From Methanohalophilus halophilus (lineage in GTDB: Archaea; Halobacteriota; Methanosarcinia; Methanosarcinales; Methanosarcinaceae), in NCBI RefSeq assembly GCF_001889405.1, contig NZ_CP017921.1, positions 222,057-262,056 on the forward strand: DNA of 40,000 nucleotides. Reading direction: 5' to 3'. The notes beneath the pieces were generated by a model. That model ran no database searches. It saw nothing but the letters and a program-made list of their open reading frames with translations, and had not been told where the DNA came from. Shown piece after piece: positions 4,064-28,498 of this stretch; the first letter of the stretch is position 1; each line of letters begins with the position of its first letter. The position numbers and the translations under genes are program-made.

Positions 4064-4084
4064 ACTCTTATGGTCTTTCAATAA

Positions 4085-7550: not shown

Positions 7551-7586
7551 AACGTTACAACTAAAAACATTATCAAAGGTCCAACA

Positions 7587-10365: not shown

Positions 10366-11967
10366 TCATTCATAATCAAAACTATAATAAATATATTCAC
10401 CATAGGGTTCGTCTCCATCTGAATTACCTTCTTCATCTTTTATTTCAATCGGTGTTAATTGCTTATCTTCATCATAAAACGAGATATCATTCTCCTTCAG
10501 AACACTGAAATAATCATCATTATCTAAAAGACCTGAATCATTTGGCGTAATCCATCCTTTCATTGTTGCTTCATAAGTCAACAACCACTTATTTTCGTAT
10601 AGTGATTCTGATGTTAGTTCATCAGCTAAAAAAGATGTATCTAAATCTGAATCAAGTAAATTTTTGTTTATCAGATCCAACACCAAAACCTGTGGAATAA
10701 CATCATTAGAACGAAGAATCGTATTCGCAAAATTTGCTGGGATTTTTATTTCAAATGTCTTAGCCATCCATAAAATCCATGAAAGTTCATAAGAATGCTT
10801 TTTGTAAAGATGTTGACCAAGTAATGTATGAATCAGATCTTTTATTTTGTTTTGGTTTTTAAATTCCTTATAATACAATAAAATTTCTATAATTGGTTTT
10901 ATTGTTTTTGCATCCAATAAAGTGCATTTAAATAATAGCGATTCAAACAAATCCCAATTTGATTCATAAATTTCATATTCTTTTATTCTTCTGATCGCAT
11001 ACTTAAGTACATGTTCACTTCTGTGTTCATCGAACAAATCAAAGGCCAAATTAAAATATTTCCAAATATCTTTTTCTTGCATGGATTCGTTTTTCCTTAA
11101 AGAAAAAGTACTTAGAGATAAAACCCATGGATCATCATAAGCCATTGGATAATGATTAATAATTGTTTTTTGTTCGTTTAAGACTAATTGATACTCATTT
11201 AAAATAGATTGTAAATAGACAATAAGGTTGTCAACATGATCTCTGTTTGACAAATAGAAGCAATAATCATCATAGTACCTATAACCCTTAAGATCAGGGA
11301 ATTCTTCTTTAAGTTTTTGATCTATTGCACAAAGTATAATTTCAGCAATAATGTGAGAATTATCAGGCCCGGTAGGAATTCCATTTGTTTGGCCTGACTG
11401 ACACGCTCTCATATATTTATCTAGTACATTGCCATAATATCTTTGGTAATCATTACGATTGTTTTTTGCTTCCTCTTTGGTATGCAATGCCCACGGAATT
11501 GAATGTGTGTAAATAGAAGGGTAAAACCAGGAAATATCTGTTTTTAGTTCAAACATTCTATCATAAGAACAAGTAATACATTTCTTCTTATATTGCTGAA
11601 ATGAGTTTAGAGTTTGTATCGAACGTTTATTTTTTGGATTTTCAAAACAATTTTCGACGGGCCTGCTTGTAGAAAGTTCTGATTTACTACAATGAGCTTT
11701 TATTTCTGCCCAATTATCAATTATGAATTTTGATAAATAAAATTGAGATATGGGGTTCACAATACTTAGTTTTCTTCTAATATGATTCTTTTTAGGAATC
11801 AAGTAATCCGTAAGTTGTGTATTTGGTATTTTAGGAACATCATTTCTAGATGTCGGATTCCATTGTGAATCAATTATTTGATGTTTGCTTGCAAAAGATT
11901 CTGTTGAAAATGCAGGAGGTAGTTCTTTTGGAAAATATCCATTTTCAAGTAAATTTTTAAGATTCAT
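10366..11967 (-). CDS. Reverse transcriptase of the defence-associated UG/Abi type (AbiK/Abi-P2-like architecture: RT domain + helical-repeat C-terminus)
   Basis: 533-aa ORF. It has RT motif A (KTDISWFYPSIYTHSIPWAL), a motif B-like segment (NGIPTGPDNSHIIAEIIL) and motif C YxDD (GYRYYDDYCFY). The N-terminal GYFPKELPPAF motif and the ~250-aa helical C-terminal region match non-LTR, non-group-II, non-retron 'Abi' RTs. No maturase/X domain or En domain is visible. Confidence 0.8.
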   Translation of the reverse strand: MNLKNLLENGYFPKELPPAFSTESFASKHQIIDSQWNPTSRNDVPKIPNTQLTDYLIPKKNHIRRKLSIVNPISQFYLSKFIIDNWAEIKAHCSKSELSTSRPVENCFENPKNKRSIQTLNSFQQYKKKCITCSYDRMFELKTDISWFYPSIYTHSIPWALHTKEEAKNNRNDYQRYYGNVLDKYMRACQSGQTNGIPTGPDNSHIIAEIILCAIDQKLKEEFPDLKGYRYYDDYCFYLSNRDHVDNLIVYLQSILNEYQLVLNEQKTIINHYPMAYDDPWVLSLSTFSLRKNESMQEKDIWKYFNLAFDLFDEHRSEHVLKYAIRRIKEYEIYESNWDLFESLLFKCTLLDAKTIKPIIEILLYYKEFKNQNKIKDLIHTLLGQHLYKKHSYELSWILWMAKTFEIKIPANFANTILRSNDVIPQVLVLDLINKNLLDSDLDTSFLADELTSESLYENKWLLTYEATMKGWITPNDSGLLDNDDYFSVLKENDISFYDEDKQLTPIEIKDEEGNSDGDEPYGEYIYYSFDYE

Positions 11968-12112: not shown

Positions 12113-12587
12113 ATGACTTTACATTATGAGATAATTGCCGAAGAAAACATGTTGAAAATATTCCAGCCTTTATGCAATAACAAGATTGACTGCCACTACT
12201 TCCAATGTACTGGATAAATGCAAAGGTATTAATTATAACAAAGAACGGGAAGGACAGACCAAGCCATTAAGCAATACGATTCTTGAGTATGTGAATCATC
12301 CATAACATAAGTTTGAGGATTATATTGGTGTTCTTGAAAGGAAGCATATTGATATTGATGGTTTCGTGTATATTGGCAAAGAGGCCAATGAGATTGATGA
12401 GCAAACTATGGACGTTTCAAGGCCACAGAAATTCTTGAATAAGGGATATGTTATGCAGAAGATACTTGATTAATCTCAAAAACAGGATGAGGAATGGGGA
12501 GTAGATAGAAAGACGTTTCAGAGAATCAAGAAGAGGATAATTGAGAATAGTGACATTAAATTGAATACTGTTGCTGTAAAAAACTAA
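12113..12587 (+). pseudogene. Casposon PolB C-terminal fragment (frameshifted, internally deleted)
   Basis: Translations across frames give TLHYEIIAEE, SLYAITRLTATTSNVLDK, KPLSNTILEYVNHP*HKF and RKHIDIDGFVYIGKEANEIDEQTMDVSRPQKF. These are collinear with residues ~655-888 of the intact PolB at 21018-23684 (KLHYGIISEE, SLYAISQLTVSTSNVLDR, KPLSNTILEYIDHPEHKF, RKHIDIDGFVYIGKEANDIDEQELDVVRPQKF). The fragment contains stops, frameshifts and a large internal deletion. Confidence 0.85.
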
Positions 12588-12656: not shown

Positions 12657-13532
12657 ATGACGCGGCTCAAAGAAAACACTATTAACCAATTATCACGCTT
12701 GATTTGTGGTGAGGATTTTGATTTTTTACCGTATCGCAAATCATCTCAATTAACTGATTTTTTTCAAGAGCTTGGTTTTGACTATACTCATGATGGATCT
12801 ACCCGAAGATATTGGGTAAGAGACGTGTTAAGCGAAATAAACACCGAAACACCTTCAGATTCCGTATTTCCGTCTCCAGAAATAATTGCTGTAATTGAAC
12901 ACATATTAAATCCAGTGAATTTTCTTGATCTTCCTGATTCTGAAGAAAAACAAAATTTAGGCATTGAACGTGTAAATAAGCTGTTATCTTTACAAGACTT
13001 GTTTGTTGAAAAAGAAGAAAACGGTGCTGTTCAACTTCATTCTAGAAAAGGTGACTTTGTATCTACATCAGTAAATAGGGATGAGAAAAAAAGAGTGATG
13101 ACTTTTTCTCCTTCTGTTTTTGAATTGCCTAAAGGTTCCACAATGAAAAACTGCGTTTCCATAATGATGCCTTTTTCGAAAGAATTTGATAATGTATATT
13201 CCGCAATAAAAGCAGCCTGTGTTAGCGAAGGAATACCCTTTCACAGAGCTGATGATTTCTGGAAAAATAGTGTCATAATTCAAGATATTTTTGAACTAAT
13301 ATGCCGTTCATCAATTGTTATTGTTGATTTTTCAAATAGAAATGAAAATGTATTTTATGAAGCTGGTATTGCCCATACTTTAGGAAAACATGTTATACCA
13401 ATAACTCAAAGTATCGACAGTATACCTTTTGATTTGAGACATCATCGGCATATAGTATATCTAAACAATGGCGAGGGTTTGAGAGGGTTAGAAAAAAAGT
13501 TGATTGACCGGCTAGCTTCTCTAAAAGAATAA
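12657..13532 (+). CDS. Two-domain protein: helical N-terminal domain + C-terminal TIR-like / nucleoside 2-deoxyribosyltransferase-like Rossmannoid domain
   Basis: 291-aa ORF. The C-terminal ~130 aa show the pattern VSIMMPFSKEFDNVY..I......G.PFHRADD...........I..SSIVIVDFSNRNENVFYEAGIAHTLGKHVIPI....D.IPFDL. This pattern is typical of TIR-like/deoxyribosyltransferase-like domains, with the conserved Glu in YEAG. Confidence 0.55.
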   Translation: MTRLKENTINQLSRLICGEDFDFLPYRKSSQLTDFFQELGFDYTHDGSTRRYWVRDVLSEINTETPSDSVFPSPEIIAVIEHILNPVNFLDLPDSEEKQNLGIERVNKLLSLQDLFVEKEENGAVQLHSRKGDFVSTSVNRDEKKRVMTFSPSVFELPKGSTMKNCVSIMMPFSKEFDNVYSAIKAACVSEGIPFHRADDFWKNSVIIQDIFELICRSSIVIVDFSNRNENVFYEAGIAHTLGKHVIPITQSIDSIPFDLRHHRHIVYLNNGEGLRGLEKKLIDRLASLKE

Positions 13533-14176: not shown

Positions 14177-15025
14177 TCAAATATGCTTATAAAGACCCAT
14201 TTTAATCTTCCCACCTTCACCGAATTCAAGCTCTGAAAAACTAACTCCTTCAAGAAAGGTCATATCTGAATCTTCATAGCGGATTATATCTGAAATCGGG
14301 AGCTTTTTTAGTTCCTTCCACAAATGAACTTCAGCAGTAAAACCTTTTAACTGATACATTTCAGTTTCAGAAATCTCCATTTTATAGATTTGGTCTTTAT
14401 CAGCAAATGCAACTTTCTTTTGAATTCGAATTCCATCTTCTGGAATATCTTTGAATATTTCACTTTGTTTTACAATTACTTCTTGATAGAACAGTTCGTT
14501 CAAAGATAACTTTTCATTATTGGACATGAATTTTTCTTCATCACTTTCAAATTTAATATTATTACCATTATAATCAACTAATTCAAAAGTAAGTATTTTT
14601 ATAATTTCATATTGCTTATGTATTACTGGTAGACAATCACCTAAAAACCAAGAATGGATATCTTCTTTGCCGATTTGACTTAACACTCGTGTTTCAATTC
14701 CATAATGTTTTGCCGTTGTTTTTGCTGGTTCTGTAAAATCGTTAGATGAAACAGCTATTACTTTTTGAACGTTGAGATTTTGACACTTTGTTGCTAATTG
14801 CTCAATCCACATTGAATCCTGTTTAGTATTTCGATCTCTGCATTCTATGATTATTGTTAAAGGTATGGAGCCAATGTTTGCTTTAATTGAGATATCAACT
14901 TCTCTTTGCTGCCCAGTAATTTTGTCGATTAGAAAATCTGGAGAGGTAATTTCATATTCGTCTTTTGTTAATATTTTATGTAGCAGAGAAACCGTTTCTT
15001 CTAATTCTTTCCCTTTTCGTGCCAT
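14177..15025 (-). CDS. Restriction-endonuclease-fold (Mrr-cat-like) protein with unknown C-terminal domain
   Basis: 282-aa ORF. The N-terminus reads GKELEETVSLLHKIL ... QREVDISIKA ... TIIIECRDRNTKQ ... VIAVSSNDFTEPAKTTAKHYGIE, which fits the D...(D/E)xK nuclease core of Mrr-type enzymes. The C-terminal ~140 aa are unassigned. Confidence 0.55.
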   Translation of the reverse strand: MARKGKELEETVSLLHKILTKDEYEITSPDFLIDKITGQQREVDISIKANIGSIPLTIIIECRDRNTKQDSMWIEQLATKCQNLNVQKVIAVSSNDFTEPAKTTAKHYGIETRVLSQIGKEDIHSWFLGDCLPVIHKQYEIIKILTFELVDYNGNNIKFESDEEKFMSNNEKLSLNELFYQEVIVKQSEIFKDIPEDGIRIQKKVAFADKDQIYKMEISETEMYQLKGFTAEVHLWKELKKLPISDIIRYEDSDMTFLEGVSFSELEFGEGGKIKMGLYKHI

Positions 15026-15180
15026 TAAAAATTAAATTAATTGTCATGGTTAAAAAAGTATCTGATAATGATTTCTTTTTAATGATAAATGTGGTTATTT
15101 GAGTTTTTTATTTTTGGGTAAAGGTGTACATTTTTTCTTAGGAAATTAAAAAAATGGTTGTGCGTACAGAGTGCAAAACG

Positions 15181-15211
15181 CCGTACACTTTTTTCGCGTT
15201 GTATATATCCC
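15181..15211. repeat. Degenerate casposon terminal inverted repeat (right end of decayed distal element)
   Basis: ccgtacacttttttcgcgttgtatatatccc aligns without gaps to the intact right TIR gcgtacaaaaaattggagataactatatccc (19/31 identical). The cgtaca block and the terminal tatatccc sit at the same spacing. It directly abuts a TSD copy. Confidence 0.6.
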
Positions 15212-15225
15212 AGAAAAATAGTGCG
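15212..15225. repeat. Target-site duplication copy 1 (agaaaaatagtgcg)
   Basis: Exact 14-bp match to 19588-19601 and 28530-28543. It lies between a TIR-like right end and a TIR left end. Confidence 0.85.
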
Positions 15226-15387
15226 GGGATATAGTTATCTTAGATTTTTTGTACGGTATCTGTATTCTTTGTTCTTACTTAAAATAGAATGATTTATTTT
15301 AATAGTGGTTTTATATATTTGACAATATATTAATTCAAAATATGTTTTGGTTTAAGAGAAATTATTTTGTACAAGTATATTTAATGA

Positions 15388-15750
15388 TTGGGTATGAAGA
15401 AAGATGAACTTTTTATTAGAGAGTTTATTGTTGGATTAGGCTTTGTAAGTGGTTTATGGATTGCTGTTGGAATAAATCCAGAATCCCTAATAATTGAACA
15501 ACTAGTAAAAATTGGGAATACATTAACACCAAAACATAATTTTGGGTTTCTATTAATACTACCAAGCATAACTACTTTAATATCAATTATAAGTGCGTGG
15601 TTTTATGGTGGAGTTTTGGGTATGATTGCTATATTACTTGCTTTTATTAGTGGCATACTAATAATTCATTTTACCATGATAGCATCTGTTTTTTTGATGC
15701 TTTCTTTATTATTGGCTTCATTATCTGTAGATAATAATTATACTTATTGA
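15388..15750 (+). CDS. Small integral membrane protein (about 3 TM helices)
   Basis: 120-aa ORF with hydrophobic stretches: VGLGFVSGLWIAVGI, FGFLLILPSITTLISIISAWFYGGVLGMIAILLAFISGILIIHFTMIASVFLMLSLLLASL. Confidence 0.55.
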   Translation: MGMKKDELFIREFIVGLGFVSGLWIAVGINPESLIIEQLVKIGNTLTPKHNFGFLLILPSITTLISIISAWFYGGVLGMIAILLAFISGILIIHFTMIASVFLMLSLLLASLSVDNNYTY

Positions 15751-15764
15751 ATTGATTCATGGCC

Positions 15765-16070
15765 TTAATAAACATAATTAATAAGATAGTTATTGAGATT
15801 AGATATGGTTTTGTATTGTAATTCTATTAAGTCAGGTAATTTTTTAACAATTGGTAGTTCTTGGCTATAAATACTTGTGGGATATATGACATTTCTAAGC
15901 CTTGATTTGCTATTACTTTTTGTTCTTATCGGATAACGTGATAATATTGAATGAGTTAGTGGGATTTTTGCTAAAACATAAAGTGGTCCCAATACACTTA
16001 TGAATTTAAGGGCCTGCAATATTATTTTTTTTATATCAATCGAAAGTTGCAGTAATTGTGAGTCATTCAA
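15765..16070 (-). CDS. Hypothetical protein downstream of the HEPN gene
   Basis: 101-aa ORF located 6 nt downstream of the HEPN gene stop on the same strand. It has no recognisable motifs and is not an MNT nucleotidyltransferase (no GS...D.D motif). Confidence 0.4.
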   Translation of the reverse strand: MNDSQLLQLSIDIKKIILQALKFISVLGPLYVLAKIPLTHSILSRYPIRTKSNSKSRLRNVIYPTSIYSQELPIVKKLPDLIELQYKTISNLNNYLINYVY

Positions 16071-16076
16071 TTCAGA

Positions 16077-16664
16077 TTAAATATTAACAGATCCCAATTG
16101 TTCTTTATCTATATATTCACATTTCTCAAAATTACTAACTAATTGATTTATATTGTCTTTCCATTGTTTTAGATCTATCGAAGATTGATCTAAGGATTCA
16201 ATACTTTTTTTAATAGAAATTTCTAATTCAGAGACACTCTGAAAAATATCATTTATCTCGCGGGTTGATAAGAAATAAGGATTACGCTTAGATTTTTGCA
16301 TCTTGCCAATTTCCCGCAAGCCATTTTCACAGTGTACTATATTTTCTTCAGGTGATATTTCAATCAAAGAAAATATTTCATTAATTTCTGGAATATGATT
16401 AAGTAATTTAGCAGATCTTTGATATTTTTCTTTTTGGTCAATAAGCATTCTTTTATATATTTCCATAGGATCGTGTCTGATTTCTAGCATGGATTCTTCA
16501 TCGAATTTTCCAGAAGATAAAGCAAGTGCTTTGTTTGCCTTTTCCACACTTTGGGCAAAGAAAAAGATTGATTGTGGATAACATTTATTTTCATATAATA
16601 CAACTGAAGATTTTAAATCAGATTTTGCGAGTTTTACAAATTCTTTTACATATTTCATACTCAT
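16077..16664 (-). CDS. HEPN domain protein
   Basis: 195-aa all-helical ORF. The N-terminal signature AKSDLKSSVVLYENKCYPQSIFFFAQSVEKANKALAL is the classic HEPN helix 1-2 pattern (A..DL..A........y.....a.Q..EKa.KA). Confidence 0.65.
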   Translation of the reverse strand: MSMKYVKEFVKLAKSDLKSSVVLYENKCYPQSIFFFAQSVEKANKALALSSGKFDEESMLEIRHDPMEIYKRMLIDQKEKYQRSAKLLNHIPEINEIFSLIEISPEENIVHCENGLREIGKMQKSKRNPYFLSTREINDIFQSVSELEISIKKSIESLDQSSIDLKQWKDNINQLVSNFEKCEYIDKEQLGSVNI

Positions 16665-16705
16665 TCTCTCGTATATAATTATGCCATATTTATACCTTCA
16701 CTCAA

Positions 16706-16786
16706 AAAACACAACAAATTTATAATTCATCATATAAATCTTACTGCATAATAATTGTGTGATAAATTATAAATTTGTTGTGTTTT
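16706..16786. promoter_or_regulatory. Perfect 22-bp inverted repeat in the divergent intergenic region (operator or RNA hairpin candidate)
   Basis: aaaacacaacaaatttataatt (16706-16727) and its exact reverse complement aattataaatttgttgtgtttt (16765-16786), separated by 37 bp. It lies between the divergently oriented HEPN gene and the 754-aa gene. Confidence 0.6.
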
Positions 16787-16958
16787 ATTAAGTGTGGGGA
16801 ACAGATTTCTATAGAAATTACTACCTCTGGATAAACAACACAGATAGATATTATAATGATAGATTTAAATGAAAAATGCTTAATAAAGACCTACAAAATA
16901 TATAATATGAAGAAGAATGAAATTTTAATTATGGAATATCAGATACAATTTACTTGGA

Positions 16959-19223
16959 TTGAATAGCATGGGCACATATAAAAAAGAGACGCATAGCAAA
17001 GACTTATATGAGCTATATAAGCATGCAGAGAAAAACACAAAATCCGATTTCATTTCTATTTTTCGATGGTTGCGTAATCAGAATCAAATACTTGGCATAA
17101 ACGATTTACTCAAACTTCAACAGTATAATTCTCCTAACTATGGACATTGGGAAGTACCACTTTCAGTTATCCAATTATACAATATATTGCTTAATTCGAG
17201 AAAGTCTAAAAATATTCTTGATCCAGTAGGGAAATTAGGTTTGTTAGGGGGCATAATCTCAGAAAATGAAAATGTTCAAAATGTCGACATTGTAAGCAGT
17301 TTGCATGAATCTGAAGAAATAATACAATCAGTAAATATGCCAAAAGTTTCGCTTACTATTGGAAATATTATTGATCTCAAAGATAATTTAAAAGATAACT
17401 ACGATGCAATAATAGGCATACCACCAATAAATAACAAGGGGGATGTCAATAATAATTTAGTGGAAACTGCAAAAATGTTGTCCAAGGAAGGAATAATTGC
17501 TTTTGTAGTACCACCTCGCATTGCTTGGGATAAAAGCAAAAAATCAATAAAAGTGTCTCTAGAAAACAACGGATTATACCTGTCAGCATTATTGCAATTC
17601 CGTCCGGGAACATTTACTACAACAAATATACCTTTTTATCTTGCAATTTTTGAAAAAGTCAATCATGATACTTTGTTCGTAGGGGAAGTTCCTGAAAAAT
17701 ATGATGAATATGATGAATTGATAAAATGCTTTTCAAAAAGAAAAGAGGGAGAAACTATAAATCAAGGAAGATTGGTAGACCCCAATAATTTTAATGGGAT
17801 CAAATCTCTCAAAGCAAAAGAAAGAGCAAAAAAACTTGCTTCAGAAAGAGGACTTAAACCCATTCCTTTTGATAAGGTAGTTCACACAATAAATACTCCT
17901 AAAAAGAGAGGAAAAGATTTTGAAAGATTTGATGAACACCCAGATGCGGTTTATTTGCCTCAAATGGCAACAACAGAAGCAAAAACTCATCAAAACGATC
18001 TATCTCCGAAATTGAAATCATATTTGCAACTGATAGTCAATCATGATGTTGTTTTACCTGAATATTTAGCTGAATGGCTTAATACAACATTGGGTATTGC
18101 CTTTCGGGAATCAGCAATGCAAGGAATAACTATACCCAGAATAAATAAGAGCAATCTTCTATTAAGTAACCTTTACTTGCCTTCTGTTATAGATCAGCGT
18201 AAGGCATTAGATGCTCTTCTTTCAATTCAAGAAATGAAGTCTGATCTAGATGAGCTTGGGTCCAAAATATGGTATCAACCTTTAAATGTGTCAGAGGTCA
18301 TAACATCTTTAGAAAAAATTAATAGAGAGGAAGTATTTGGCGATTGGATAGAATCTCTTCCATACCCCCTCGCTTCAATTCTTAGATCATATGATACAGT
18401 AGACCAAACAGACAAAGACAAATATGAACGGCTCTTGCTTTTTTATGAAGGATTTGCTGAATTTTGCGCAACGGTGCATATTAGTGCATTTAAGAAACAG
18501 CCAGCTATTTGGGAGCCATTGAAAAATAAAATAAAACAAGTAATGGCTGAGAATAATTTTTCATTTGAAAAACCAACTTTTGGTTTGTGGGCCTCTATAA
18601 CAAGTATATTGGCGAAAGAATTACGTTCAATGATTAATGGAAAACAAGATGATAAAGATGCTACAAATGCACTTTATGAAACAGCTGATTTAGAACCATT
18701 AGAAATATTGTCATCCAAATCTTTAGTTAATTTAATAAACGAAACTAATAAAAAACGCAATGATTGGAGTGGTCACACAGGGGCTGTTTCCCAAAAAGAA
18801 GCTCGTGAAAGACATGACCACCTGAAAAACCAACTATCAAATTTGCATAAAATAATAGGTGATCTCTTCCAACAATATAAGCTTGTGGAGGCCGAGCCAT
18901 CAGGAATTGATGCTTTGACAGAGTCAAAGTTTAAGTGTAAAGTTAAATTAGTAATGGGTTCAAATCCTCTTCTTGAACGTCAAACATTGCAATTGAGTAT
19001 GACGTTAATTACAGGGTCATTATATATGTATAACATTGGAAATGATAGGGTTCTTGAACTGGTCCCATTTATTCAGGTCACTGAATCTCCACAATCTGCT
19101 AGTTACTTCTATAATAGAGTGGAAAAAGAAGGGTTACGCCTTGTTTCTTATCAAGTTATTAATGAATCAGAAATATTTAGAAAAAATCAGTACCTAGAGG
19201 ATTTGATAAAAAGTTTTACTTAA
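16959..19223 (+). CDS. Fusion protein: degenerate N6-MTase-like domain + HsdS-like TRD + C-terminal helical domain with HEPN-like Rx5H motif
   Basis: 754-aa ORF (TTG at 16959, first ATG at 16968). It has a Rossmann-like ILDPVGKLGLLGG and an atypical motif IV, AIIGIPPIN (I instead of N/D/S before PP). An HsdS-like segment reads GITIPRINKSNLLLSNLYLPSVIDQRKALDALLSIQEM. The C-terminal helical region contains KKRNDWSGHTGAVSQKEARERH. Confidence 0.55.
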   Translation: MNSMGTYKKETHSKDLYELYKHAEKNTKSDFISIFRWLRNQNQILGINDLLKLQQYNSPNYGHWEVPLSVIQLYNILLNSRKSKNILDPVGKLGLLGGIISENENVQNVDIVSSLHESEEIIQSVNMPKVSLTIGNIIDLKDNLKDNYDAIIGIPPINNKGDVNNNLVETAKMLSKEGIIAFVVPPRIAWDKSKKSIKVSLENNGLYLSALLQFRPGTFTTTNIPFYLAIFEKVNHDTLFVGEVPEKYDEYDELIKCFSKRKEGETINQGRLVDPNNFNGIKSLKAKERAKKLASERGLKPIPFDKVVHTINTPKKRGKDFERFDEHPDAVYLPQMATTEAKTHQNDLSPKLKSYLQLIVNHDVVLPEYLAEWLNTTLGIAFRESAMQGITIPRINKSNLLLSNLYLPSVIDQRKALDALLSIQEMKSDLDELGSKIWYQPLNVSEVITSLEKINREEVFGDWIESLPYPLASILRSYDTVDQTDKDKYERLLLFYEGFAEFCATVHISAFKKQPAIWEPLKNKIKQVMAENNFSFEKPTFGLWASITSILAKELRSMINGKQDDKDATNALYETADLEPLEILSSKSLVNLINETNKKRNDWSGHTGAVSQKEARERHDHLKNQLSNLHKIIGDLFQQYKLVEAEPSGIDALTESKFKCKVKLVMGSNPLLERQTLQLSMTLITGSLYMYNIGNDRVLELVPFIQVTESPQSASYFYNRVEKEGLRLVSYQVINESEIFRKNQYLEDLIKSFT

Positions 19224-19587
19224 TGAAAGAAGGGAGTTATGAAGATTCTAACTATTACCAAATATAATATAAAAAGTACTCTTAGACAGTTTCCAAAAAA
19301 ACAATCATTAATGATGAAAATATATTCTTTTCATCAGCATTTCGAGTATCCATGCACAAAGTGATAAATGTATTTTGAGTAGTAGGTCCTTTCAAAAATA
19401 GATTAATGCAGTTTGGTCAAATGTTGCTTTTTATTAGTTAGTAAGTATAAAATACGAATTAATATAATTTTTTGGTGGTTGTATTTTTCAATTCTACCTA
19501 TAACCCCGATTTTATGTGTGAGTGATAAAATTCGAACCAAAACTTTCTAAAATTCTGAGTATCTTATTTTCAGGATACCTATATCCC

Positions 19588-19601
19588 AGAAAAATAGTGC
19601 G
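19588..19601. repeat. Target-site duplication copy 2 (agaaaaatagtgcg)
   Basis: Exact 14-bp repeat. It separates the right end of the non-autonomous element from the left TIR of the intact casposon. Confidence 0.85.
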
Positions 19602-19632
19602 GGGATATAGTTATCTCTAATTTTTTGTACGC
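19602..19632. repeat. Casposon left terminal inverted repeat
   Basis: See the casposon feature (19602-28529). This TIR matches the reverse complement of 28499-28529 at 30/31. Confidence 0.9.
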
Positions 19633-19845
19633 TAAGTATTTACAGACTTATTTAAATTAACTACTGGGTTAATCTTTTAAATTGAAACCCAGATAAATGT
19701 ACAGAACGTTCAATTCACATCTTCTTTTAAAAGAGTGTCACTTTTTCGCAAAAGGAACATTTTTATAATAAACGGTTTATGATCCATTATCATTATACTT
19801 TTTTATAAAATGATGTAATATATCATGTTAAATATAGTTTGATTA

Positions 19846-20787
19846 TTGGGTGGTATTATGTATTGCCATAATTGTGGTTCAGAAATAGATGATAATGATG
19901 CTGCATTTTGCTCAAAATGTGGAACTAAAATCAAAAAAATAGAAAAAGAAATATTGTCCTCTACACTTGATGTAAAAAATGAAGAAAGTAGGAAGGATGA
20001 ATCATATATTGAGTTAGATACAGCCAACCAAAATAACACATCTATTAAAAAAGAAAATCCAGATTCGTGGGTTTTTATAAAAATATGTGCATATATAATT
20101 TGTGCTGTGGTTATTTCTTCCTTATTTATAGGCCTGTATAATATTGGTAGTGATTTTTATGGGGGTGAGGGAGCGTTTGTACAAGGTGAAGGTGGAGAAG
20201 GATTCGTTGCTTCAAATTCTGATATTACCCATAGCTTAACACAAGAACAAAAAAACACTCAAATTTGTGAAGAAATTGTACAAAACTACTATGAAACCCA
20301 TACATACGTATCGGATGATGTTTTTGATTGCGATAACATGGCAATGGATGTTTGGAATTTAGTAGAAAGTAAAGGAATAAATGCTGAAATTGCCGTGGGT
20401 AATGTAGATATGAAGGATGCAAATTTAGAAGATATCAATCATGCTTGGGTAATAGCAGAAGTTTCACCACAAAATTGGGTAGCTATAGAATGTACCAGTG
20501 GTTATCTTACATATGATGATGTGTATTATTCGGGTTGGTTCTTTGACAACCCTAAAAACTATCAAAGTTTTTTAAATGTATATACCACTTGGGAATATAA
20601 ATATCAAGAATATGAAAATTATAGATTATATTATAATGAATTGGTTGAACAGTTTAATGAGGCTGATGCCTATGAGCAAGCCTCACTAAGAAGTGGTCTT
20701 GAAATTGCAAGAGAAAATCTTCATCAAAAAGAAAGAGATTTTTTACAGGCTAAAACCGAATTAAATGCATTATTAGAATATGGGTAA
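19846..20787 (+). CDS. Zinc-ribbon / TM / transglutaminase-like cysteine-protease-fold protein (casposon cargo)
   Basis: 313-aa ORF whose likely true start is the ATG at 19858 (MYCHNCGSEIDDNDAAFCSKCG zinc ribbon). It has one TM helix (WVFIKICAYIICAVVISSLFIGLY). A Cys...His...Glu/Asp arrangement (FDCDNMAMDVWNLVESKGINAEIAVG ... INHAWVIAEV ... WVAIECTSG) resembles the transglutaminase-like core. Confidence 0.6.
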   Translation: MGGIMYCHNCGSEIDDNDAAFCSKCGTKIKKIEKEILSSTLDVKNEESRKDESYIELDTANQNNTSIKKENPDSWVFIKICAYIICAVVISSLFIGLYNIGSDFYGGEGAFVQGEGGEGFVASNSDITHSLTQEQKNTQICEEIVQNYYETHTYVSDDVFDCDNMAMDVWNLVESKGINAEIAVGNVDMKDANLEDINHAWVIAEVSPQNWVAIECTSGYLTYDDVYYSGWFFDNPKNYQSFLNVYTTWEYKYQEYENYRLYYNELVEQFNEADAYEQASLRSGLEIARENLHQKERDFLQAKTELNALLEYG

Positions 20788-21017
20788 ATATCATTATGAA
20801 ATTGAATATATTTCAAAAACATCTTTCCAGAAAACTTCAAGGACTGCAACAATTAAAATTACAGTTTCATCGCGAAAAGCTTTATTGTTTAAATTATTGA
20901 TTTTTTCAAAATTTATTTCAAATGCTTTGTTAATATCTTGTATTCATGGATTTTATCATTTTGAGACATAAACAAAATAATGTATGTCAACACTTATTGT
21001 TTTATTGATTCAGAGCT

Positions 21018-23684
21018 TTACATAAAAGCATCCATAATTCTCTCCATATTCCTACTCTTAAAATTCAACTCTCCTTCCTTTGCTTTTTTCTTCAAGTAAG
21101 CCAAAGCACTCCTATGTTTAATTCCAATCCTTCTGGCATCTTCAGGAGTTAAACCAAGAATAAACTTCTCCACTGCTTTTCCATCAATGAACTTTTGAGG
21201 TCTTACAACATCCAACTCCTGCTCATCAATATCATTGGCCTCTTTACCAATATACACAAACCCATCAATATCAATATGTTTTCTTGCAAGAGTGCCAGTA
21301 TCACCCCCAAACTTATGCTCTGGATGATCTATATACTCAAGAATCGTATTGCTTAATGGCTTGAAATAGTAAGATCCTTGCCTGACTTCTCCAGTCTGAT
21401 AATCAATAAAAGACTCATAAACTATCTTCTGATAATCCTTAGTAAAAGGTGCTAAAGGCTTGACAACCTTGTCATTTTCTTCTGTTGTCTGAAACCCAAC
21501 CAGAAAGAAATTGAATGGTTTGATCTGTTCTCTCCATTCCTTGACAGCATTAAGATCCTTGAATCTATCCAATACATTGGAAGTACTGACAGTAAGCTGA
21601 GAGATTGCATACAGGCTAGAATATTTCTCAACAATATCTTCCTCAGAAATAATCCCATAATGTAACTTGAGTATATCTTGCCAAATTTCAGCCTGCCAAT
21701 CTTCAACATCCTTTGGAAACGGATTTGTTAAATGACCAAGCCCATGAAGTTTGTAAGATCTCTCTCCTTCCATGAACTCAATTTTATCCTTGTTTAAGTT
21801 GTAGAGTGCATATCTCTTGGAAGAGATCCCATAAAACCACATATCCTCTTTCTCAGGCTTCAATAAAGGAATATCCAGAGCATAAGGATTCAATGGCTGG
21901 AAATAATCAACTATCTCCTGTGCATTTTCAGGAGGAACAAAGATTGAATCTGTATCCATATAAGCATGAGTTCCACCAAGTTCTTTGAGTCTGGCTTCAG
22001 CCATAGCCAGAAAAAGCCTTGAACCTGCTGTAATCATGACTGCCACAAAAGGATGATAGAAATTACCTGGCTTTTCAAACCTATTCTCTGAAGTACTGAA
22101 ATCATCAAGCCCATAAACCTGAATATCACTTTTCTTATCTTCTGGATTAAGTTCAATAAAGATCCCATAACTCATTGCGTTAACAAGAATCTTGATGGCC
22201 TGTGCTCTGCTCTTTAGATGTTGATATTCAGGATCTTTTTTATCAAGACTTTTCATATCCTGTTTTATCTTTTGCCTTTCCTCAACCATTATCTTGGTTA
22301 GGCTTTCTTTGGATGGATCAATATTTATTCCAAGTATCTCCTGAATGTTCAAGTCATCCTGAATCCCAACAGGAACAAACTTGACAGCCTCTATGATCTC
22401 AGGGGTCTTTCCAGTTAATAGGACAGAACCGATAACATCAGGCAAAGCATACCATAAACCATCTTTAGAACTTACATGATTTAATCCAACATTATAACTC
22501 TCATTCTTGCCTTTGTAATCCATCCTTACAGGCAATATATCCTCATCTGGTTTCAATTTAACAAGGATATTGAAATGAGGCCAGTTATCTGGATTTTGTA
22601 AATAATCAAGATCTATATTGGAAAGAATCTTTTTTGCTTCCTCTGTTGCATCTTCAGTCTCAATCCTGTCAGCAATCAAAAATGGCCAGAGATCCAACAT
22701 TAAAGTAATAGTAGGATACATACTGGTAAAATCAAGAACTGTAACTTGGGTTGGTGTTTTCCTGATCTTGCATTCACACCTGCCACCAAAATAAGCAGTC
22801 ATTATATTTCCTAACATCTCAGGAGAGAAATCAGGATTCTTTTCTAAAAATGGGTTTATTCCAATTTGTTTCATGGCATGTTTACCAAGAGAAGCAGCAC
22901 TAAACACTCTGGTTATGGGTATATCAATACCATAAAGATCCAGTTCTTTCACAAGTTCCCTGTAAACTTCAAAAGTAGTTTTGACATCAGTTACAAGATA
23001 GTCAATATACTTCTCAGTAACTCGGCCATGTTTTATATTCTTCTTTTTCTTAATGTTGGTATTGAGCCTCTCTCCTACCTTATCAAGTGAAATATGATTC
23101 TTTGATTGAAGGAGTACTTCAGCCAGTTTTTGAGCATCTAAAAAGTATCCCCCAAAATACTCTTTACCCTTGTTTTGCTTGGTTGTTGTGAATTTGAAGG
23201 AATAAGCAGTACCAAGTTTTTTGATAACAATTGGGGGTTTAACTCTATCATCTGACAGAGTAAGAGTAAACCCACCTTTGTTTTTCCCTCTGGAATTTCC
23301 AGATCTCTTGGCTATCCTGCTTATATCAAAGGCCAGATTGAATCCAACACATAAAGTTTGGAAATCATATACCTCTGTATAGAACACATTATCTACAAAA
23401 TCAGATAGAGTATAGATAGATATAGTATGTCTAGATGCATAGATATTCAAGGCTCTTGTTTCCCTTACATCCAGCATTGAAGGATCATAAAATAACCCTT
23501 CATGCTGAATATAGCCATCCTGATATATCTGGAAATATCCAATTTTCATGTTTTGGTACTGGTCTGTTGTAGTCTCAGTATCAAAGACCAATACTCTATC
23601 ATGTCTCAAAGGTGTGGTTGGAGTTTCACCCTTCCATGCTTTCTTTTCTTTGTGGGTGTATCCCCTCACAGCAACCTTAGTCAT
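21018..23684 (-). CDS. polB: Protein-primed family B DNA polymerase (casposon PolB)
   Basis: 888-aa ORF with Exo I (VLVFDTETT), Exo II (GFNLAFDISRI), Pol motif B (KILVNAMSYGIF), Pol motif C (HAYMDTDSIFV) and a C-terminal HTH-like tail. Confidence 0.93.
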   Translation of the reverse strand: MTKVAVRGYTHKEKKAWKGETPTTPLRHDRVLVFDTETTTDQYQNMKIGYFQIYQDGYIQHEGLFYDPSMLDVRETRALNIYASRHTISIYTLSDFVDNVFYTEVYDFQTLCVGFNLAFDISRIAKRSGNSRGKNKGGFTLTLSDDRVKPPIVIKKLGTAYSFKFTTTKQNKGKEYFGGYFLDAQKLAEVLLQSKNHISLDKVGERLNTNIKKKKNIKHGRVTEKYIDYLVTDVKTTFEVYRELVKELDLYGIDIPITRVFSAASLGKHAMKQIGINPFLEKNPDFSPEMLGNIMTAYFGGRCECKIRKTPTQVTVLDFTSMYPTITLMLDLWPFLIADRIETEDATEEAKKILSNIDLDYLQNPDNWPHFNILVKLKPDEDILPVRMDYKGKNESYNVGLNHVSSKDGLWYALPDVIGSVLLTGKTPEIIEAVKFVPVGIQDDLNIQEILGINIDPSKESLTKIMVEERQKIKQDMKSLDKKDPEYQHLKSRAQAIKILVNAMSYGIFIELNPEDKKSDIQVYGLDDFSTSENRFEKPGNFYHPFVAVMITAGSRLFLAMAEARLKELGGTHAYMDTDSIFVPPENAQEIVDYFQPLNPYALDIPLLKPEKEDMWFYGISSKRYALYNLNKDKIEFMEGERSYKLHGLGHLTNPFPKDVEDWQAEIWQDILKLHYGIISEEDIVEKYSSLYAISQLTVSTSNVLDRFKDLNAVKEWREQIKPFNFFLVGFQTTEENDKVVKPLAPFTKDYQKIVYESFIDYQTGEVRQGSYYFKPLSNTILEYIDHPEHKFGGDTGTLARKHIDIDGFVYIGKEANDIDEQELDVVRPQKFIDGKAVEKFILGLTPEDARRIGIKHRSALAYLKKKAKEGELNFKSRNMERIMDAFM

Positions 23685-24018
23685 GTTTCATCAACTCATG
23701 TCCATAACTGAGCAACTGATCCCCTATACCCCTGAGTAATGCACCAACTGAGATAAACCAAAATCCCCTCTGTTCAATAGGTTTGGCCTTTTTTGACCTT
23801 TTTTTAGGACTTACCTTGTTCTGTTCTGCTGTAGTTTTGAAATGGCAGCTCTTGCATAGAGGAATTGTTTCATCAGAATTGCATCTACCATAAACATGAT
23901 GCATCTCTATGACAGAAAGATCATCCTCTCCACATTCAACACAACAAAGAGATGTTTGCTTGTTTCTCTTCTGCTTCCTTGTAGCCTTTAGATATGTTTC
24001 TTTATCCATCTGTATCAC
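23677..24018 (-). CDS. HNH endonuclease
   Basis: 113-aa ORF with CCVECGEDDLSVIEMHHV ... TIPLCKSCHFKT (HNH/zinc-finger signature). It overlaps the PolB start by 8 nt, which suggests translational coupling. Confidence 0.85.
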   Translation of the reverse strand: MIQMDKETYLKATRKQKRNKQTSLCCVECGEDDLSVIEMHHVYGRCNSDETIPLCKSCHFKTTAEQNKVSPKKRSKKAKPIEQRGFWFISVGALLRGIGDQLLSYGHELMKHD

Positions 24019-24023
24019 CTCCT

Positions 24024-24665
24024 TTAGCTCTTGTAAATCTCCAGAAATTCAGGTTCTTCAATAGTTTCTCCAATTTCATACAGTCTCTCAAGGCTGGTCT
24101 CAAGTCTGTACTCGTTACCATCAGCATCCTTTATCTTCATATCCTTGAACTTCTCAAGACCTGAAGGATCTCCTGTTTTCAAGGCCTTCTGTACAGCAGC
24201 AAAATATTTTCCAATCCTTGATCTATCTCTGGAATTGGTGACAACAATACTGGTTACTCCTTCATCTTCAGAGTAGATCAGCATTTCAGACTGAATAGAA
24301 TCAGTTTTTGTGACCTGCCATCTGCCACCCTCTTTTTCCAGATGTGTTCCAAGATGCTTGAGAGCAAACTGTTTGTTTACTCCAAGTTTACTGGTGGCCT
24401 CACTCAGAGTTTTACCATGTCTCATTTTCCTCAAAATTTCAAGGGATAGGTTTCTATCCCTTTTCTGACTTGAAGACAGGTTTTGCCATACTGTATTGCT
24501 GAGGTCATAATCACTTATCTTCAGATTCCTTAATTGCTTCAGACTTTTATCAGGGGAATACTGATGTTTCCTGATTATCCCCTTTGCATACCTGGAAGTC
24601 CTTGATTGAGCATTGAGCCACTCACCATAGGTTCTGTGCTTTCTGGAGAAACGTGGTCTTCCCAT
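24024..24665 (-). CDS. HTH DNA-binding protein (casposon core-associated)
   Basis: 213-aa ORF with an HTH-like segment KTLSEATSKLGVNKQFALKHLG. It is in the same operon as HNH and PolB. Confidence 0.6.
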   Translation of the reverse strand: MGRPRFSRKHRTYGEWLNAQSRTSRYAKGIIRKHQYSPDKSLKQLRNLKISDYDLSNTVWQNLSSSQKRDRNLSLEILRKMRHGKTLSEATSKLGVNKQFALKHLGTHLEKEGGRWQVTKTDSIQSEMLIYSEDEGVTSIVVTNSRDRSRIGKYFAAVQKALKTGDPSGLEKFKDMKIKDADGNEYRLETSLERLYEIGETIEEPEFLEIYKS

Positions 24666-24805
24666 TATTTCTCAGCCTCCCAGAGTTTCAGTAATGCTAT
24701 CCTGATAACTTCAGCCTGAGAGCATCCAAACTTATCTGACAACTGTACAAGTGTCTCCTTGAGATAAGGAGAAAGTGTTGTTATTATTCTTTCACTTTCA
24801 TTCAT
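24665..24805 (-). CDS. Small ribbon-helix-helix (CopG-like) protein, absent from the supplied ORF track
   Basis: Manual translation of the minus strand gives MNESERIITTLSPYLKETLVQLSDKFGCSQAEVIRIALLKLWEAEK* (46 aa). This is a beta-strand followed by two helices with the typical S..EVIR.AL pattern. Its TAA overlaps the ATG of the next gene by 1 nt (ATAATG). Confidence 0.5.
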   Translation of the reverse strand: MNESERIITTLSPYLKETLVQLSDKFGCSQAEVIRIALLKLWEAEK

Positions 24806-24939
24806 TGGTTTTCACCAATAGACTGTATGTACAGCCATACTGATATTAACAATGATATTGATTTTAATACTAAAATGAGCATTAATGATATAAACCATAA
24901 CAAATATGATATTATATTAGATAGTGAGAGGTAGAAATA

Positions 24940-25848
24940 TTGATACAAAATGAGGCTGATTTTGAGGAGGAAGTTGTTCAGTATTTAAACAAGAATGGCA
25001 AGATGCGAAGAGAGCAGTTGATTAAAGTACTTATTGAGGCGCATACACAAACAAACGAAAAAGGAGACAAATTTGTAGATGGTGGATATAGTAAACCCAC
25101 AATTAATAGAAAACTTGGAGATATGCTTGGATCTGGTAAAATCATAAGATTGAATTACCACCAGCTTAAAAACTATGGCTTTTCTGAAGATGATGGGAGG
25201 GCAACATATCTGTTTACTGAGGAAGGGCTACGATTGAAGACACATATTGATGAGGTACTCAAGCTTCTTGCTTCAGATGATGAAATTGATAAACAGATTG
25301 CTTTGAAAGAATTAAACCGATACAGTGAAATTTACTCTTTTGATGAAACTCAGCTAGATTTAATCGTGCAAAATCTAGCCTCCAAGAACGCAGAATTGAC
25401 AAACAAGTTTCTTACTACTCTCAAAAATTACATCATCAACAGAGGAAAAGAGCCGACGGATAAAAAAGCCTTGTTGAACGCTCTAAAGATCGTGCTGGAG
25501 AAGCATGGAGAACCAGCCGGAAAAAACAAGGTCACTAGAGAAGTGGCCATCCTTTTACTTAGCCACTATAAAGACGAATATGTACTTGACCAGCTCATCA
25601 AAGATGCAAATGCCTTGGATAATCCTCTAGAAGTAGAAGAGGATTATGCCCATGACCCTTCGATGATTGCTGATATTATCATAAAAAATCCTTCAAGACT
25701 ATTTGAGGCTGAAAGGCAATTGACAAAAGAAGGAAAATATGATGCTTCTCAGTTCATTTCAAATATAAGGGGTCGGTGCATGAGGGCATTTCGAATGAAT
25801 GATGCTGAAAAAGCAGAGATTCAGAAAAAACTAGAAGAGGAGTTATAA
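24940..25848 (+). CDS. Hypothetical protein, N-terminal winged-helix-like domain + helical repeats
   Basis: 302-aa ORF with a TTG start preceded by gagagg. The N-terminus reads VVQYLNKNGKMRREQLIKVLIEA ... YSKPTINRKLGDMLGSGKIIRL, which is wHTH-like. Its stop overlaps the Cas1 start (TAATG). Confidence 0.5.
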   Translation: MIQNEADFEEEVVQYLNKNGKMRREQLIKVLIEAHTQTNEKGDKFVDGGYSKPTINRKLGDMLGSGKIIRLNYHQLKNYGFSEDDGRATYLFTEEGLRLKTHIDEVLKLLASDDEIDKQIALKELNRYSEIYSFDETQLDLIVQNLASKNAELTNKFLTTLKNYIINRGKEPTDKKALLNALKIVLEKHGEPAGKNKVTREVAILLLSHYKDEYVLDQLIKDANALDNPLEVEEDYAHDPSMIADIIIKNPSRLFEAERQLTKEGKYDASQFISNIRGRCMRAFRMNDAEKAEIQKKLEEEL

Positions 25849-27050: not shown

Positions 27051-27163
27051 TTAAGTATATTTTTTTACACAAAAAGGTGAATATAAGCAACTATATTTTT
27101 TATATAATTTTATATCTTATAGACTACAAAAATGATTTATAGAATTTTGTTTCATTTATACAT

Positions 27164-27838
27164 ATGCATAGTTTGGAAGTAGTCACTCTTTTTTTACAAG
27201 CAATTGTAACTCTGTATGCATTTTTCTTTGCAGTATATGCGCTTGGGATAAAAAAATATGCTAAAAATATTACTTATCATTCTTATTTTGACGCAATATC
27301 ATTAGCAGTTTTAAGTTCTATATTTATATATACTTTAATGCTGTTCATTTATTCACAAGATTTAAATTTATTATCTTTTTATATTCATATCAATATATTA
27401 GAAATTATATTGAGTTTTATAGAACGTTCAAATATTAATTATTTTAATGTTGCATATAGTATATTCATTTTTATAATCGGATTGATGTTTATATATGCAA
27501 AGATTTTACTGGATTTGAATAAGTCAGAAGAAAGATTTTCCCAAAAAATAAGTAATATTCAGCTAGAAAAGGGGAAGGTAAAACCATTATTTAAAATAAC
27601 TTATTACATCTTTAAATATTACTTGTCTAACATGGGGATCTATGGAAATTTAGTATTTATTTTAATGTTAATTTTTCTTGTTTTACAATTTCCAGAGATA
27701 TCCTTTTTCGGATTAATTACATTTATTATTGGAGTTTATTTGTTTTTAGGGGCTTTTATTTTTATAACAACATTAATCATATTTTGTGTTTCATTTTGTA
27801 AAGTAAGACTACTCCAAAATAGACTGAAGCATCTCTGA
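27164..27838 (+). CDS. Polytopic membrane protein (casposon cargo)
   Basis: 224-aa very AT-rich ORF with at least 5 hydrophobic helices. No family assignment. Confidence 0.5.
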   Translation: MHSLEVVTLFLQAIVTLYAFFFAVYALGIKKYAKNITYHSYFDAISLAVLSSIFIYTLMLFIYSQDLNLLSFYIHINILEIILSFIERSNINYFNVAYSIFIFIIGLMFIYAKILLDLNKSEERFSQKISNIQLEKGKVKPLFKITYYIFKYYLSNMGIYGNLVFILMLIFLVLQFPEISFFGLITFIIGVYLFLGAFIFITTLIIFCVSFCKVRLLQNRLKHL

Positions 27839-28048
27839 GGCCACATAAACATAAAAAGAACTTACATAGTATAATTATTTTTAATTATGCAGATGCTTTG
27901 AAAACGTATTATTCTTGTTCAATTACTTAAATAATATTTGAGATAATATTACAAAATCTAGTGCTTTTAAAGATAACTTTAAGTAAAATATTATTTCTAA
28001 AAATATTACAAAAGATTCAAATAAATTCTTATAAAAATATATTAGATA

Positions 28049-28435: not shown

Positions 28436-28498
28436 ATATTTTTAATATGTACTCCTAATATATATATTTTTTATATGCCCTAGATTTTACATAAAATA

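Follow-up and report, generated by a model that had tools for sequence, protein, structure and literature searches.

A single-chain protein with a degenerate methylase-like core and a putative HEPN effector module accompanies type I restriction systems and is carried on a casposon-like element in Methanohalophilus halophilus

A 40,000-nucleotide stretch of the Methanohalophilus halophilus genome (NZ_CP017921.1; this whole stretch is called the window, and all coordinates are window positions unless a locus is named) encodes a 754-aa protein, which together with its gene is referred to here as X (16959-19223, forward strand). X is a member of a large family of single-chain proteins, as yet unnamed, that are found together with type I restriction-modification (R-M) systems. 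It combines a Rossmann-fold domain resembling the type I methylase HsdM, a single target recognition domain (TRD) with one long helix resembling half of the specificity subunit HsdS, an all-α domain and a β-rich C-terminal domain (Table 1). Across the family, the catalytic motif of the methylase-like domain has decayed, four residues of the all-α domain are invariant or nearly so, most genes lie in type I operons, and the C-terminal module is also joined to other proteins. The all-α domain is most likely a putative metal-independent endoribonuclease (RNase) of the HEPN superfamily. We give about an even chance to the proposal that X is a single-chain guard resembling PrrC and Ronin, in which a degenerate methylase-specificity (pseudo-M·S) sensor would control an RNase effector with an abortive outcome.

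Domain architecture and family-wide conservation of X

The open reading frame (ORF) of X is intact in the window. NCBI places its start at an ATG at 16968, which gives 751 aa, and names the product 'DNA methyltransferase family protein [Methanohalophilus halophilus]'. The initial annotation of this DNA had described X and a divergently encoded HEPN protein and had quoted the motifs IPPI and RNDWSGH from X, and both ORFs and both motifs proved to be correctly placed. It had also read X as three parts, a methyltransferase (MTase)-like N-terminus, a TRD with a conserved helix and a C-terminal module with an Rx5H motif, and this order holds. The ~300-aa C-terminus was taken there for helical throughout, whereas the AlphaFold2 model resolves it into a helical domain of ~175 aa followed by a β-rich domain of ~100 aa. 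The full-length model was built on 48 homologues and has a mean predicted local distance difference test (pLDDT) score of 89.2; a separate model of the C-terminal part reached a pLDDT of 88 and a predicted template modelling (pTM) score of 0.88.

In a Foldseek search of the PDB with the full-length model, type I HsdM structures came first (7eew, E 3e-13; 3lkd, 5ybb and 2y7c), and γ-class MTases carrying their own TRD (PacII M, CamA, M.TaqI and M.BseCI) were further matches. Profile matches agree with this assignment. The MTase-like part matches Pfam MTS (E 0.006) and PADLOC mad2 (E 4.5e-7 over ~120 residues, a generic MTase-core similarity), and the TRD-like part matches PADLOC Specificity_I (E 6e-7, residues 311-436). 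Pfam N6_Mtase was found in 37 of 64 X homologues, down to E 4e-12, and Methylase_S in 10 of the 64, down to E 6e-7, both above the Pfam thresholds. The N-terminal two-thirds of X therefore has the Rossmann fold of an S-adenosylmethionine (SAM)-dependent MTase with the glycine loop of motif I, as well as a TRD fold followed by a helix like that of the HsdS conserved region. This helical region consists of helices 410-439 and 441-454 in the model, and the Specificity_I and Methylase_S matches extend into it. The fold of the β-rich domain had no significant match, with Foldseek returning only a faint lipocalin/FAD-barrel similarity (E at least 0.02), and this domain always accompanies the helical one. 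No relatives turned up when the PDB was searched by sequence and by profile, using X and a profile of its C-terminal part, and an NCBIfam scan of X and its neighbours gave no match. X was also considered as a BREX PglX or MADS Mad2 orthologue and rejected, the MTase-core similarity being generic, and as a type IIG enzyme and rejected because it has no nuclease domain.

At motif I, X reads LDPVGKLG (17217-17240), and at the motif IV position it has IPPI (17418-17429), which the initial annotation had taken as a sign that the protein is possibly catalytically inactive. Counts over 156 full-length family members, the set used for all motif and conservation figures given here, point the same way. 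The canonical (N/D/S)PP(Y/F/W) motif IV is found in 5 members and is absent from the other 151, so that degeneracy is a property of the family and not of the window copy alone. The first motif IV position is held by C (30 members), S (19), D (17), V, F and N (12 each) and M (11), with L, I, A and E also seen, and a minority of members have SPPF or DPPx there. The motif I consensus LDPxxGxG is mostly kept (D88 in 128/156, G94 in 140/156). Mean pairwise identity across the family is 26% in the MTase-like domain, which is among the least conserved parts of the protein, and 38% in the C-terminal domains, which are the most conserved.

These figures make it improbable that X is an active but unusual DNA (or RNA) methyltransferase, that is, a type IIG-like or type I-like fusion of M and S whose catalytic motif is non-canonical and whose C-terminus is accessory. 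Such an enzyme would fit the methylase annotations of family members, the N6_Mtase matches reaching E 4e-12 and the SPPF/DPPx minority, but the catalytic position is not conserved across the family, conservation is concentrated in the C-terminal module and not in the MTase domain, and the operons already contain a bona fide HsdM. For the initial annotation, the outcome that would speak against its reading was a normal, active fusion of M and S whose homologues carry a standard motif, and 5 canonical members in 156 is not that outcome.

The behaviour of the TRD was compared in 23 loci that hold X together with HsdS and HsdM. In this set, which is noisy and mixes several type I subfamilies, mean identity was 20% for HsdS against 30% for HsdM, as expected for diversifying TRDs, while the X TRD (27%) was not hypervariable relative to the X MTase-like domain (25%), and its divergence was uncorrelated with that of the adjacent HsdS (Spearman ρ = 0.09). 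X also has one TRD and one helix, where HsdS has two hypervariable TRDs and two conserved regions. This argues that the X TRD binds something constant rather than the variable site of the host. With (N/D)PP(Y/F) lost and a TRD that does not diversify, X most likely does not methylate DNA or read variable sequences, and is more likely a sensor or docking module.

A related alternative, which we regard as distinctly unlikely, is that X is a sensor of DNA state. DNA would be bound by the pseudo-methylase and TRD, which would flip a base and read its methylation or modification, and the RNase would fire on foreign DNA, meaning unmodified or hypermodified DNA, with anti-restriction proteins not being the trigger. 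The closest structures are indeed γ-class MTase-plus-TRD enzymes, which bind DNA and flip adenine, the Rossmann fold and motif I are kept, and hydrophobic residues replace the catalytic N/D in most family members. However, a conserved TRD that does not co-vary with the adjacent HsdS is hard to square with reading the variable site of the host.

Conservation is strongest around a motif in the all-α domain. R600 and H606 are present in 156 of 156 members, N601 in 155 and E497 in 154, and W463 and W544 are invariant; in the window, the motif reads RNDWSGH (18756-18776) and E497 is encoded at 18447-18449. The initial annotation had singled out a lack of conservation of this R and H as a result that would count against it, and none of the 156 members lacks either residue. 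The spacing from R to H is 4 or 5 residues, within the Rx4-6H definition, with a polar residue after the R, and some members have RNxxAH-like forms such as RNASAH (in IRNASAHGG). In the model, R600 and N601 lie at the end of helix 587-601, H606 falls in the next loop, before helix 612-633, and E497 is located in helix 485-511. This placement of the motif may correspond to the one described for HEPN domains, in which Rx4-6H sits where core helix 3 ends and the loop to helix 4 begins (PMC3710099), within an up-down bundle of helices that has an insert between helices 2 and 3.

In addition, profile matches to the helical domain recurred in three libraries, and all of them were of HEPN type and spanned the RN..H motif. 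They comprised Pfam HEPN_Swt1 (4 of 22 family members, best E 0.0011, best score 19.1 bits against a cut-off of 27.5), Pfam Abi_2 (E 0.007-0.022), a weak match to Pfam HEPN-like_int, a weak match to PADLOC CARF_HEPN (E 0.005) and PHROG phrog_2158 'abortive infection resistance protein' (3 of 22 members, E 4e-4). Taken with the model, these matches indicate that the helical domain probably belongs to the HEPN superfamily, and most likely is a putative metal-independent endoRNase of that superfamily.

The family is widespread. About 50 full-length relatives (27-49% identity, ~770 aa) were found in 90% identity clusters, and 72 loci in GTDB species genomes. Bacterial hosts include Planctomycetota, Bacteroidota, Bacillota, Cyanobacteria, Verrucomicrobiota, Acidobacteriota, Chloroflexota, Myxococcota and others, and among the archaeal hosts are Methanobacterium, Methanobrevibacter, Methanocalculus, Methanomicrobiales and Promethearchaeota. 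Source annotations label the members 'DNA methyltransferase family protein', 'N-6 DNA methylase' or 'predicted RNA methylase'. A profile of the C-terminal 315 residues of X retrieved at least 1515 cluster representatives (50% identity) at E <= 1e-3, 795 of them at E <= 1e-30, and no model in Pfam, NCBIfam or PADLOC covers this module.

The module is not confined to methylase-like partners. Its helical and β domains occur together on Ser/Thr protein kinase domains (P0102, P0104, P0105, P0109; locus L079, 8001-9422), on TPR repeats (P0116) and on a HARE-HTH domain with a ResIII helicase (P0052; locus L081, 8001-11939), in each case outside any type I context. In one locus (L080, 1361-3728), the family protein is split into a 453-aa N-terminal gene standing back to back with a 324-aa gene for the C-terminal module, adjoining HsdM fragments; this is either a natural two-gene form or a decayed copy. 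Because of these fusions and the split gene, the C-terminal part behaves as a portable, effector-type module.

Type I operons and a proposed guard function

Genomic context was counted in the 43 loci where X is full-length and both flanks are complete. In 33 of these, hsdM, hsdS or hsdR lies no more than four genes from X, almost always in the same orientation, and all three are present in 19. Most often the gene order is hsdM-(GmrSD-like)-hsdS-X-hsdR, and in a second pattern X comes just after hsdR. HEPN RNases linked to type I R-M systems, with PrrC as the type, had been put forward as a precedent in the initial annotation, and the embedding of the family in type I operons suits that precedent. 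Since X genes usually reside within these operons, the family most likely represents a back-up suicide guard for restriction systems.

In the proposed mechanism, the pseudo-M·S module would keep the RNase of X silent. Two triggers can be envisaged. The pseudo-M·S groove might act as a decoy and capture anti-restriction factors such as DNA mimics, or X might be docked on the type I complex and report inhibition of that complex or be released from it. HEPN RNases are generally active as dimers, and dimerisation through the single HsdS-like helix would pair two HEPN domains and switch on RNA cleavage, upon which translation would stop and the infection would abort. The decoy is doubtful as the specific trigger. 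The fuller version, in which X is a 'decoy type I methylase' whose dead M·S mimic captures Ocr/ArdA-like proteins, leading to a HEPN dimer and RNA cleavage, is likewise doubtful.

The same operon context could suit a different role, which we consider unlikely, in which X would serve type I complexes as a structural or regulatory subunit without catalytic activity, perhaps by helping assembly, controlling restriction alleviation or competing for HsdR, and the conserved E, R, N and H of the C-terminal module would bind a ligand or partner and cleave no RNA. A protein resembling both M and S and encoded within type I operons could enter type I assemblies or compete for them, Foldseek searches against the PDB and BFVD gave no structural confirmation of a HEPN fold, and some HEPN-like domains are known as non-catalytic binders (PMC3710099). 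Against a purely regulatory subunit, the invariant R, N and H at Rx4-5H spacing in an exposed loop constitute the signature of a catalytic HEPN, kinases, TPR repeats and a helicase carry the C-terminal module outside the type I context, and some X genes have no type I neighbours.

Several observations weigh against X being a guard with an RNase effector, and most of these concern the HEPN assignment. Every HEPN profile match of the family falls under its curated threshold, and HEPN_Swt1 was matched by only 2 of 64 members of an independent set of X homologues. The context of E497 is Ex3E and not the Ex3[KR] typical of HEPN domains. An hhalign comparison of the C-terminal profile with the PF05168-type HEPN family was negative (probability 0.1), a search with the same profile gave no bridge to annotated HEPN families among its best 150 matches (all of them clear family members), and Foldseek with the C-terminal model found nothing significant in the PDB or BFVD. 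The proposal of the initial annotation that the Rx5H motif marks a HEPN domain is thus supported by the invariance of R600 and H606, but the fold itself is unproven, having neither a significant Foldseek match nor a profile match above threshold. On the methylase side, the first position of motif IV is still N, D or S in 31% of the family and motif I is retained by most members, and SAM binding or residual activity may persist in some of them. Finally, about one quarter of the fully flanked loci, including the window, have no adjacent type I genes, so X can have no obligatory physical tie to a type I complex.

One X homologue (P0033; loci L005 and L006, genes 124-5801) is encoded by the last of four same-strand genes, following genes of 231 aa and 322 aa and a 586-aa reverse transcriptase. 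This cluster contains no type I genes and suggests an alternative, reverse transcriptase-linked context for the family.

In the window, the nearest type I operon could serve as a partner of X in trans. It has a PDC-M11 candidate defence system embedded in it (Table 1), and the PADLOC catalogue of R-M-embedded candidates recognises this neighbouring PDC-M11 and not X, which pipelines probably read as an R-M component. The PDC-M11B/ASCH part of the operon is either fused to HsdS or an overlapping upstream gene that was merged with it by mechanical ORF calling.

The divergent HEPN gene and the mobile elements around X

The initial annotation had paired X with a separate classical HEPN protein of 195 aa and with a 101-aa neighbour, as a possible toxin-antitoxin or sensor-effector system. 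Neither of these partners stands as a gene of its own. The 195-aa ORF (16077-16664, reverse strand; annotated as a protein of 193/195 aa) matches Pfam HEPN PF05168 (E 1e-5), with the match confined to residues 7-53, and its homologues are ~285 aa long. The 101-aa ORF (15765-16070) aligns to the C-terminal ~95 residues of these homologues, and the two ORFs share one frame across a single TAA (...GSVNI*SELNDSQ...), which identifies them, as read from the sequence, as one gene with an in-frame stop. TAA is not the pyrrolysine codon, and the split gene may be a pseudogene or reflect a sequencing error.

No homologue of this HEPN gene was detected within 10 kb of X in 75 other loci. Intact homologues (L082, L083 and L084) adjoin type I operons without X; in Methanohalophilus sp. 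WG1-DM, one is directly downstream of hsdR, and on another contig one is divergent from hsdR. Given the in-frame stop and the lack of co-occurrence with X elsewhere, the two genes appear to be independent satellites of type I R-M systems that are neighbours here by chance. A functional pair of X with the HEPN protein or the 101-aa ORF is accordingly very improbable, and the comparative context largely refutes it. The adjacency and divergent orientation of the two genes, the strong palindrome in their shared intergenic region and the association of both families with type I R-M would favour a pair, but the gene is interrupted, the 101-aa ORF is its C-terminus, and neither family keeps company with the other in the loci compared. 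The 195-aa fragment was also compared with a 193-aa gene downstream of a Flavobacteriales X homologue as a candidate shared partner, which was rejected as the two have no similarity.

The palindrome between the HEPN gene and X (16706-16786) has near-perfect 38-nt arms and a 5-nt loop. Its single-strand fold has a z-score of -6.85, with 0 of 200 shuffles folding as well, and it could be an operator or a terminator. A sigma-70 promoter and terminator scan, which is uninformative for an archaeon, gave nothing above chance.

X had been placed on a casposon-like vehicle, and this description requires a distinction between two elements. The complete casposon at 19602-28529 has Cas1 and PolB between terminal inverted repeats together with a target-site duplication (TSD), and X lies outside it. 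X is carried instead by an adjacent 4.36-kb element (15226-19587) that has casposon-type repeats and a TSD but lacks Cas1 and PolB, and that stands in tandem with the real casposon. The left repeat of the X element (15226-15259) is the same as that of the casposon, its right repeat (19555-19587) is degenerate, and its cargo comprises orf120, the stop-split HEPN gene and X. A 17-nt copy of the target site at the tRNA-Leu 3' end, AGAAAAATAGTGCGGGG, occurs at 15212-15228 and 19588-19604, and with one mismatch at 28530-28546, where none would be expected by chance. Casposon ends form a tandem array at 15175-15259, 19551-19634 and 28493-28546, and each internal junction has the order degenerate right repeat, TSD, left repeat. 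This pattern marks tandem, repeated insertion into a regenerated target, and the X element is a non-autonomous or decayed tandem copy whose cargo consists entirely of defence-type genes. No Cas1 or PolB was found near other X family members, and carriage by a casposon is therefore particular to this window.

To the left of the X element, an inverted copy of part of PolB (12156-12434, corresponding to 21189-21626) is 74-82% identical to it and looks like the remnant of an older, decayed casposon left of 15211, for which no left end was found. The DRT4 reverse transcriptase, the TIR-like protein and the Mrr-like nuclease of Table 1 lie in this decayed element. Beyond the casposon, a partial copy of tRNA-Leu (28720-28761, 93% identical to 28583-28624) lies 137 nt beyond the tRNA-Leu gene.

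Table 1. Features of the window, with X and its domains first
Feature	Position	Strand	Details
Gene X	16959-19223	+	754 aa from TTG; single-chain pseudo-HsdM / half-HsdS / HEPN-like / β-domain protein
X, N-terminal helices			Residues 1-60; AlphaFold2 model
X, Rossmann-fold HsdM-like domain	17139-17744	+	Residues ~61-262; γ-class N6-adenine MTase-like
X, single HsdS-like TRD	17766-18173	+	Residues ~270-405; α/β
X, long helix	18186-18320	+	Residues ~410-454; resembles HsdS conserved-region coiled-coil helix
X, HEPN-like domain	18336-18863	+	Residues ~460-635, ~175 aa; all-α
X, C-terminal domain	18876-19181	+	Residues ~640-741, ~100 aa; β-rich
PF05168-type HEPN gene	15765-16664	-	~297 codons; split by in-frame TAA at 16077-16079
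Non-autonomous casposon-like element	15226-19587		4.36 kb; carries X
orf120	15388-15750	+	120 aa, strongly hydrophobic, several predicted membrane-spanning stretches; no family match in any library
Complete casposon	19602-28529		33-nt terminal inverted repeats 19602-19634 / 28497-28529, 97% complementary
PolB	21018-23684	-	Inside the complete casposon
Cas1	25848-27050	+	Inside the complete casposon
tRNA-Leu	28539-28624	-	Casposon inserted at tRNA 3' end
DRT type 4 defence reverse transcriptase	10366-11967	-	533 aa; PADLOC Drt4 E 2e-194; same low-GC island as X
TIR-like protein	12657-13532	+	291 aa; C-terminal TIR-like effector match, PADLOC E 1.4e-5
Mrr-like nuclease	14177-15025	-	282 aa; Mrr_cat restriction-nuclease domain, Pfam E 1.9e-5
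Nearest type I R-M operon	1307-9098	+	Ends ~7.9 kb upstream of X
hsdR	1307-4063	+	Type I operon
PDC-M11A	4085-5587	+	500 aa; PADLOC E 3.5e-152; embedded candidate defence system
PDC-M11B/ASCH and hsdS	5550-7550	+	666-aa ORF; first ~130 residues are PDC-M11B/ASCH
hsdM	7587-9098	+	Type I operon

Significance and relation to known systems

A literature search for MTase-HEPN fusions and for the architecture of X found no description of either, although absence from the searched literature is not proof. What is known already is the RNase guard embedded in a type I R-M system and the concept of an M·S decoy. If the proposed function holds, X would be the first HEPN-methylase fusion and a widespread type I R-M guard of bacteria and archaea, carried here as casposon-derived cargo, and it would extend the logic of PrrC and Ronin to one polypeptide, where a duplicated and inactivated copy of the guarded M·S core is coupled directly to an RNase. 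A very common family, with at least 1515 clusters at 50% identity in many bacterial phyla and several archaeal orders, would then have been long overlooked, its members being labelled 'methylase' or 'S subunit' by pipelines. Such a guard would also offer a tractable way to ask how restriction systems sense their own inhibition. The C-terminal module of X may be a new general-purpose effector, and the carriage of X without Cas1 shows that ends of casposon type are able to mobilise defence genes, or at the least to flank them.

In the fold and domain order of its N-terminal ~450 residues, X resembles γ-class MTases with a TRD (M.TaqI, CamA and M.BseCI) and the HsdM/HsdS core. It differs from these enzymes in lacking (N/D)PP(Y/F/W) in 151 of 156 members, in its conserved TRD and in its C-terminal extension of ~300 aa. 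The kinase fusions of the C-terminal module recall Ire1 and RNase L, which join a kinase to a KEN domain (HEPN), a likeness of architecture only and with no homology to KEN shown. The element that carries X shares its terminal repeat sequence and TSD with the adjacent casposon, which has the features of family-2-type casposons (Cas1 and PolB, terminal inverted repeats and a TSD at a tRNA 3' end), and departs from these in having no Cas1 or PolB and a degenerate right repeat.

Among HEPN proteins, the best matches to the helical domain of X are members of the Abi2/Swt1 clade, at sub-threshold scores (best 19 bits against 27.5). Representatives of this clade found in R-M operons (AbiD/AbiF, and Ava_2192, a DUF499-HEPN protein of Hma/'BR') share with X both an RNxxxH-type motif and the R-M context. 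A 2013 census of HEPN domains stated that those linked to R-M systems are fused to nucleases, helicases and ATPases 'but not to the methylases' (PMC3710099). X would be an exception to this rule, even though its methylase appears to be dead, and would contradict the published generalisation.

PrrC is an anticodon nuclease of a type Ic R-M operon (EcoprrI), a latent RNase with an Rx4-6H active site of HEPN type whose gene lies among the type I hsd genes. The R-M proteins are believed to silence it and phage anti-restriction to set it free; EcoprrI keeps PrrC inactive, and the Stp peptide of the phage releases it (PMC3710099). The X family takes the same operon position as PrrC in EcoprrI, in the order hsdS-X-hsdR. 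Embedding in a type I operon, as in PrrC, is seen for the family (33/43) but not for the window copy, which lies ~7.9 kb from the operon. In PrrC and RloC, a C-terminal HEPN anticodon nuclease is regulated by an N-terminal ABC-type NTPase, whereas X has a degenerate HsdM-like domain and a TRD in that place and an extra β domain. No ATPase domain was found in X by library scans or in the AlphaFold2 model, no sequence similarity between X and PrrC was detected, and PADLOC gave no PrrC match.

The second close comparison is with Ronin, which consists of HsdM and HsdS as a decoy without hsdR, together with RonA, a 61-aa membrane toxin, and whose output is cell death or arrest (bioRxiv 10.1101/2023.04.06.535777). 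HsdMS serves there as a decoy for Ocr/ArdA, and its methylase activity is dispensable (bioRxiv 10.1101/2023.04.06.535777). No recurring RonA-like partner of X was found in the family loci. X and Ronin are alike in that the methylase core of a type I system serves, or in X is proposed to serve, for sensing or as a decoy. In Ronin, this core is a separate HsdM, with an intact-looking NPPF, and an HsdS acting with a small membrane toxin, whereas X is a single chain without motif IV that has one TRD and a putative RNase, and that usually has hsdR in its operon.

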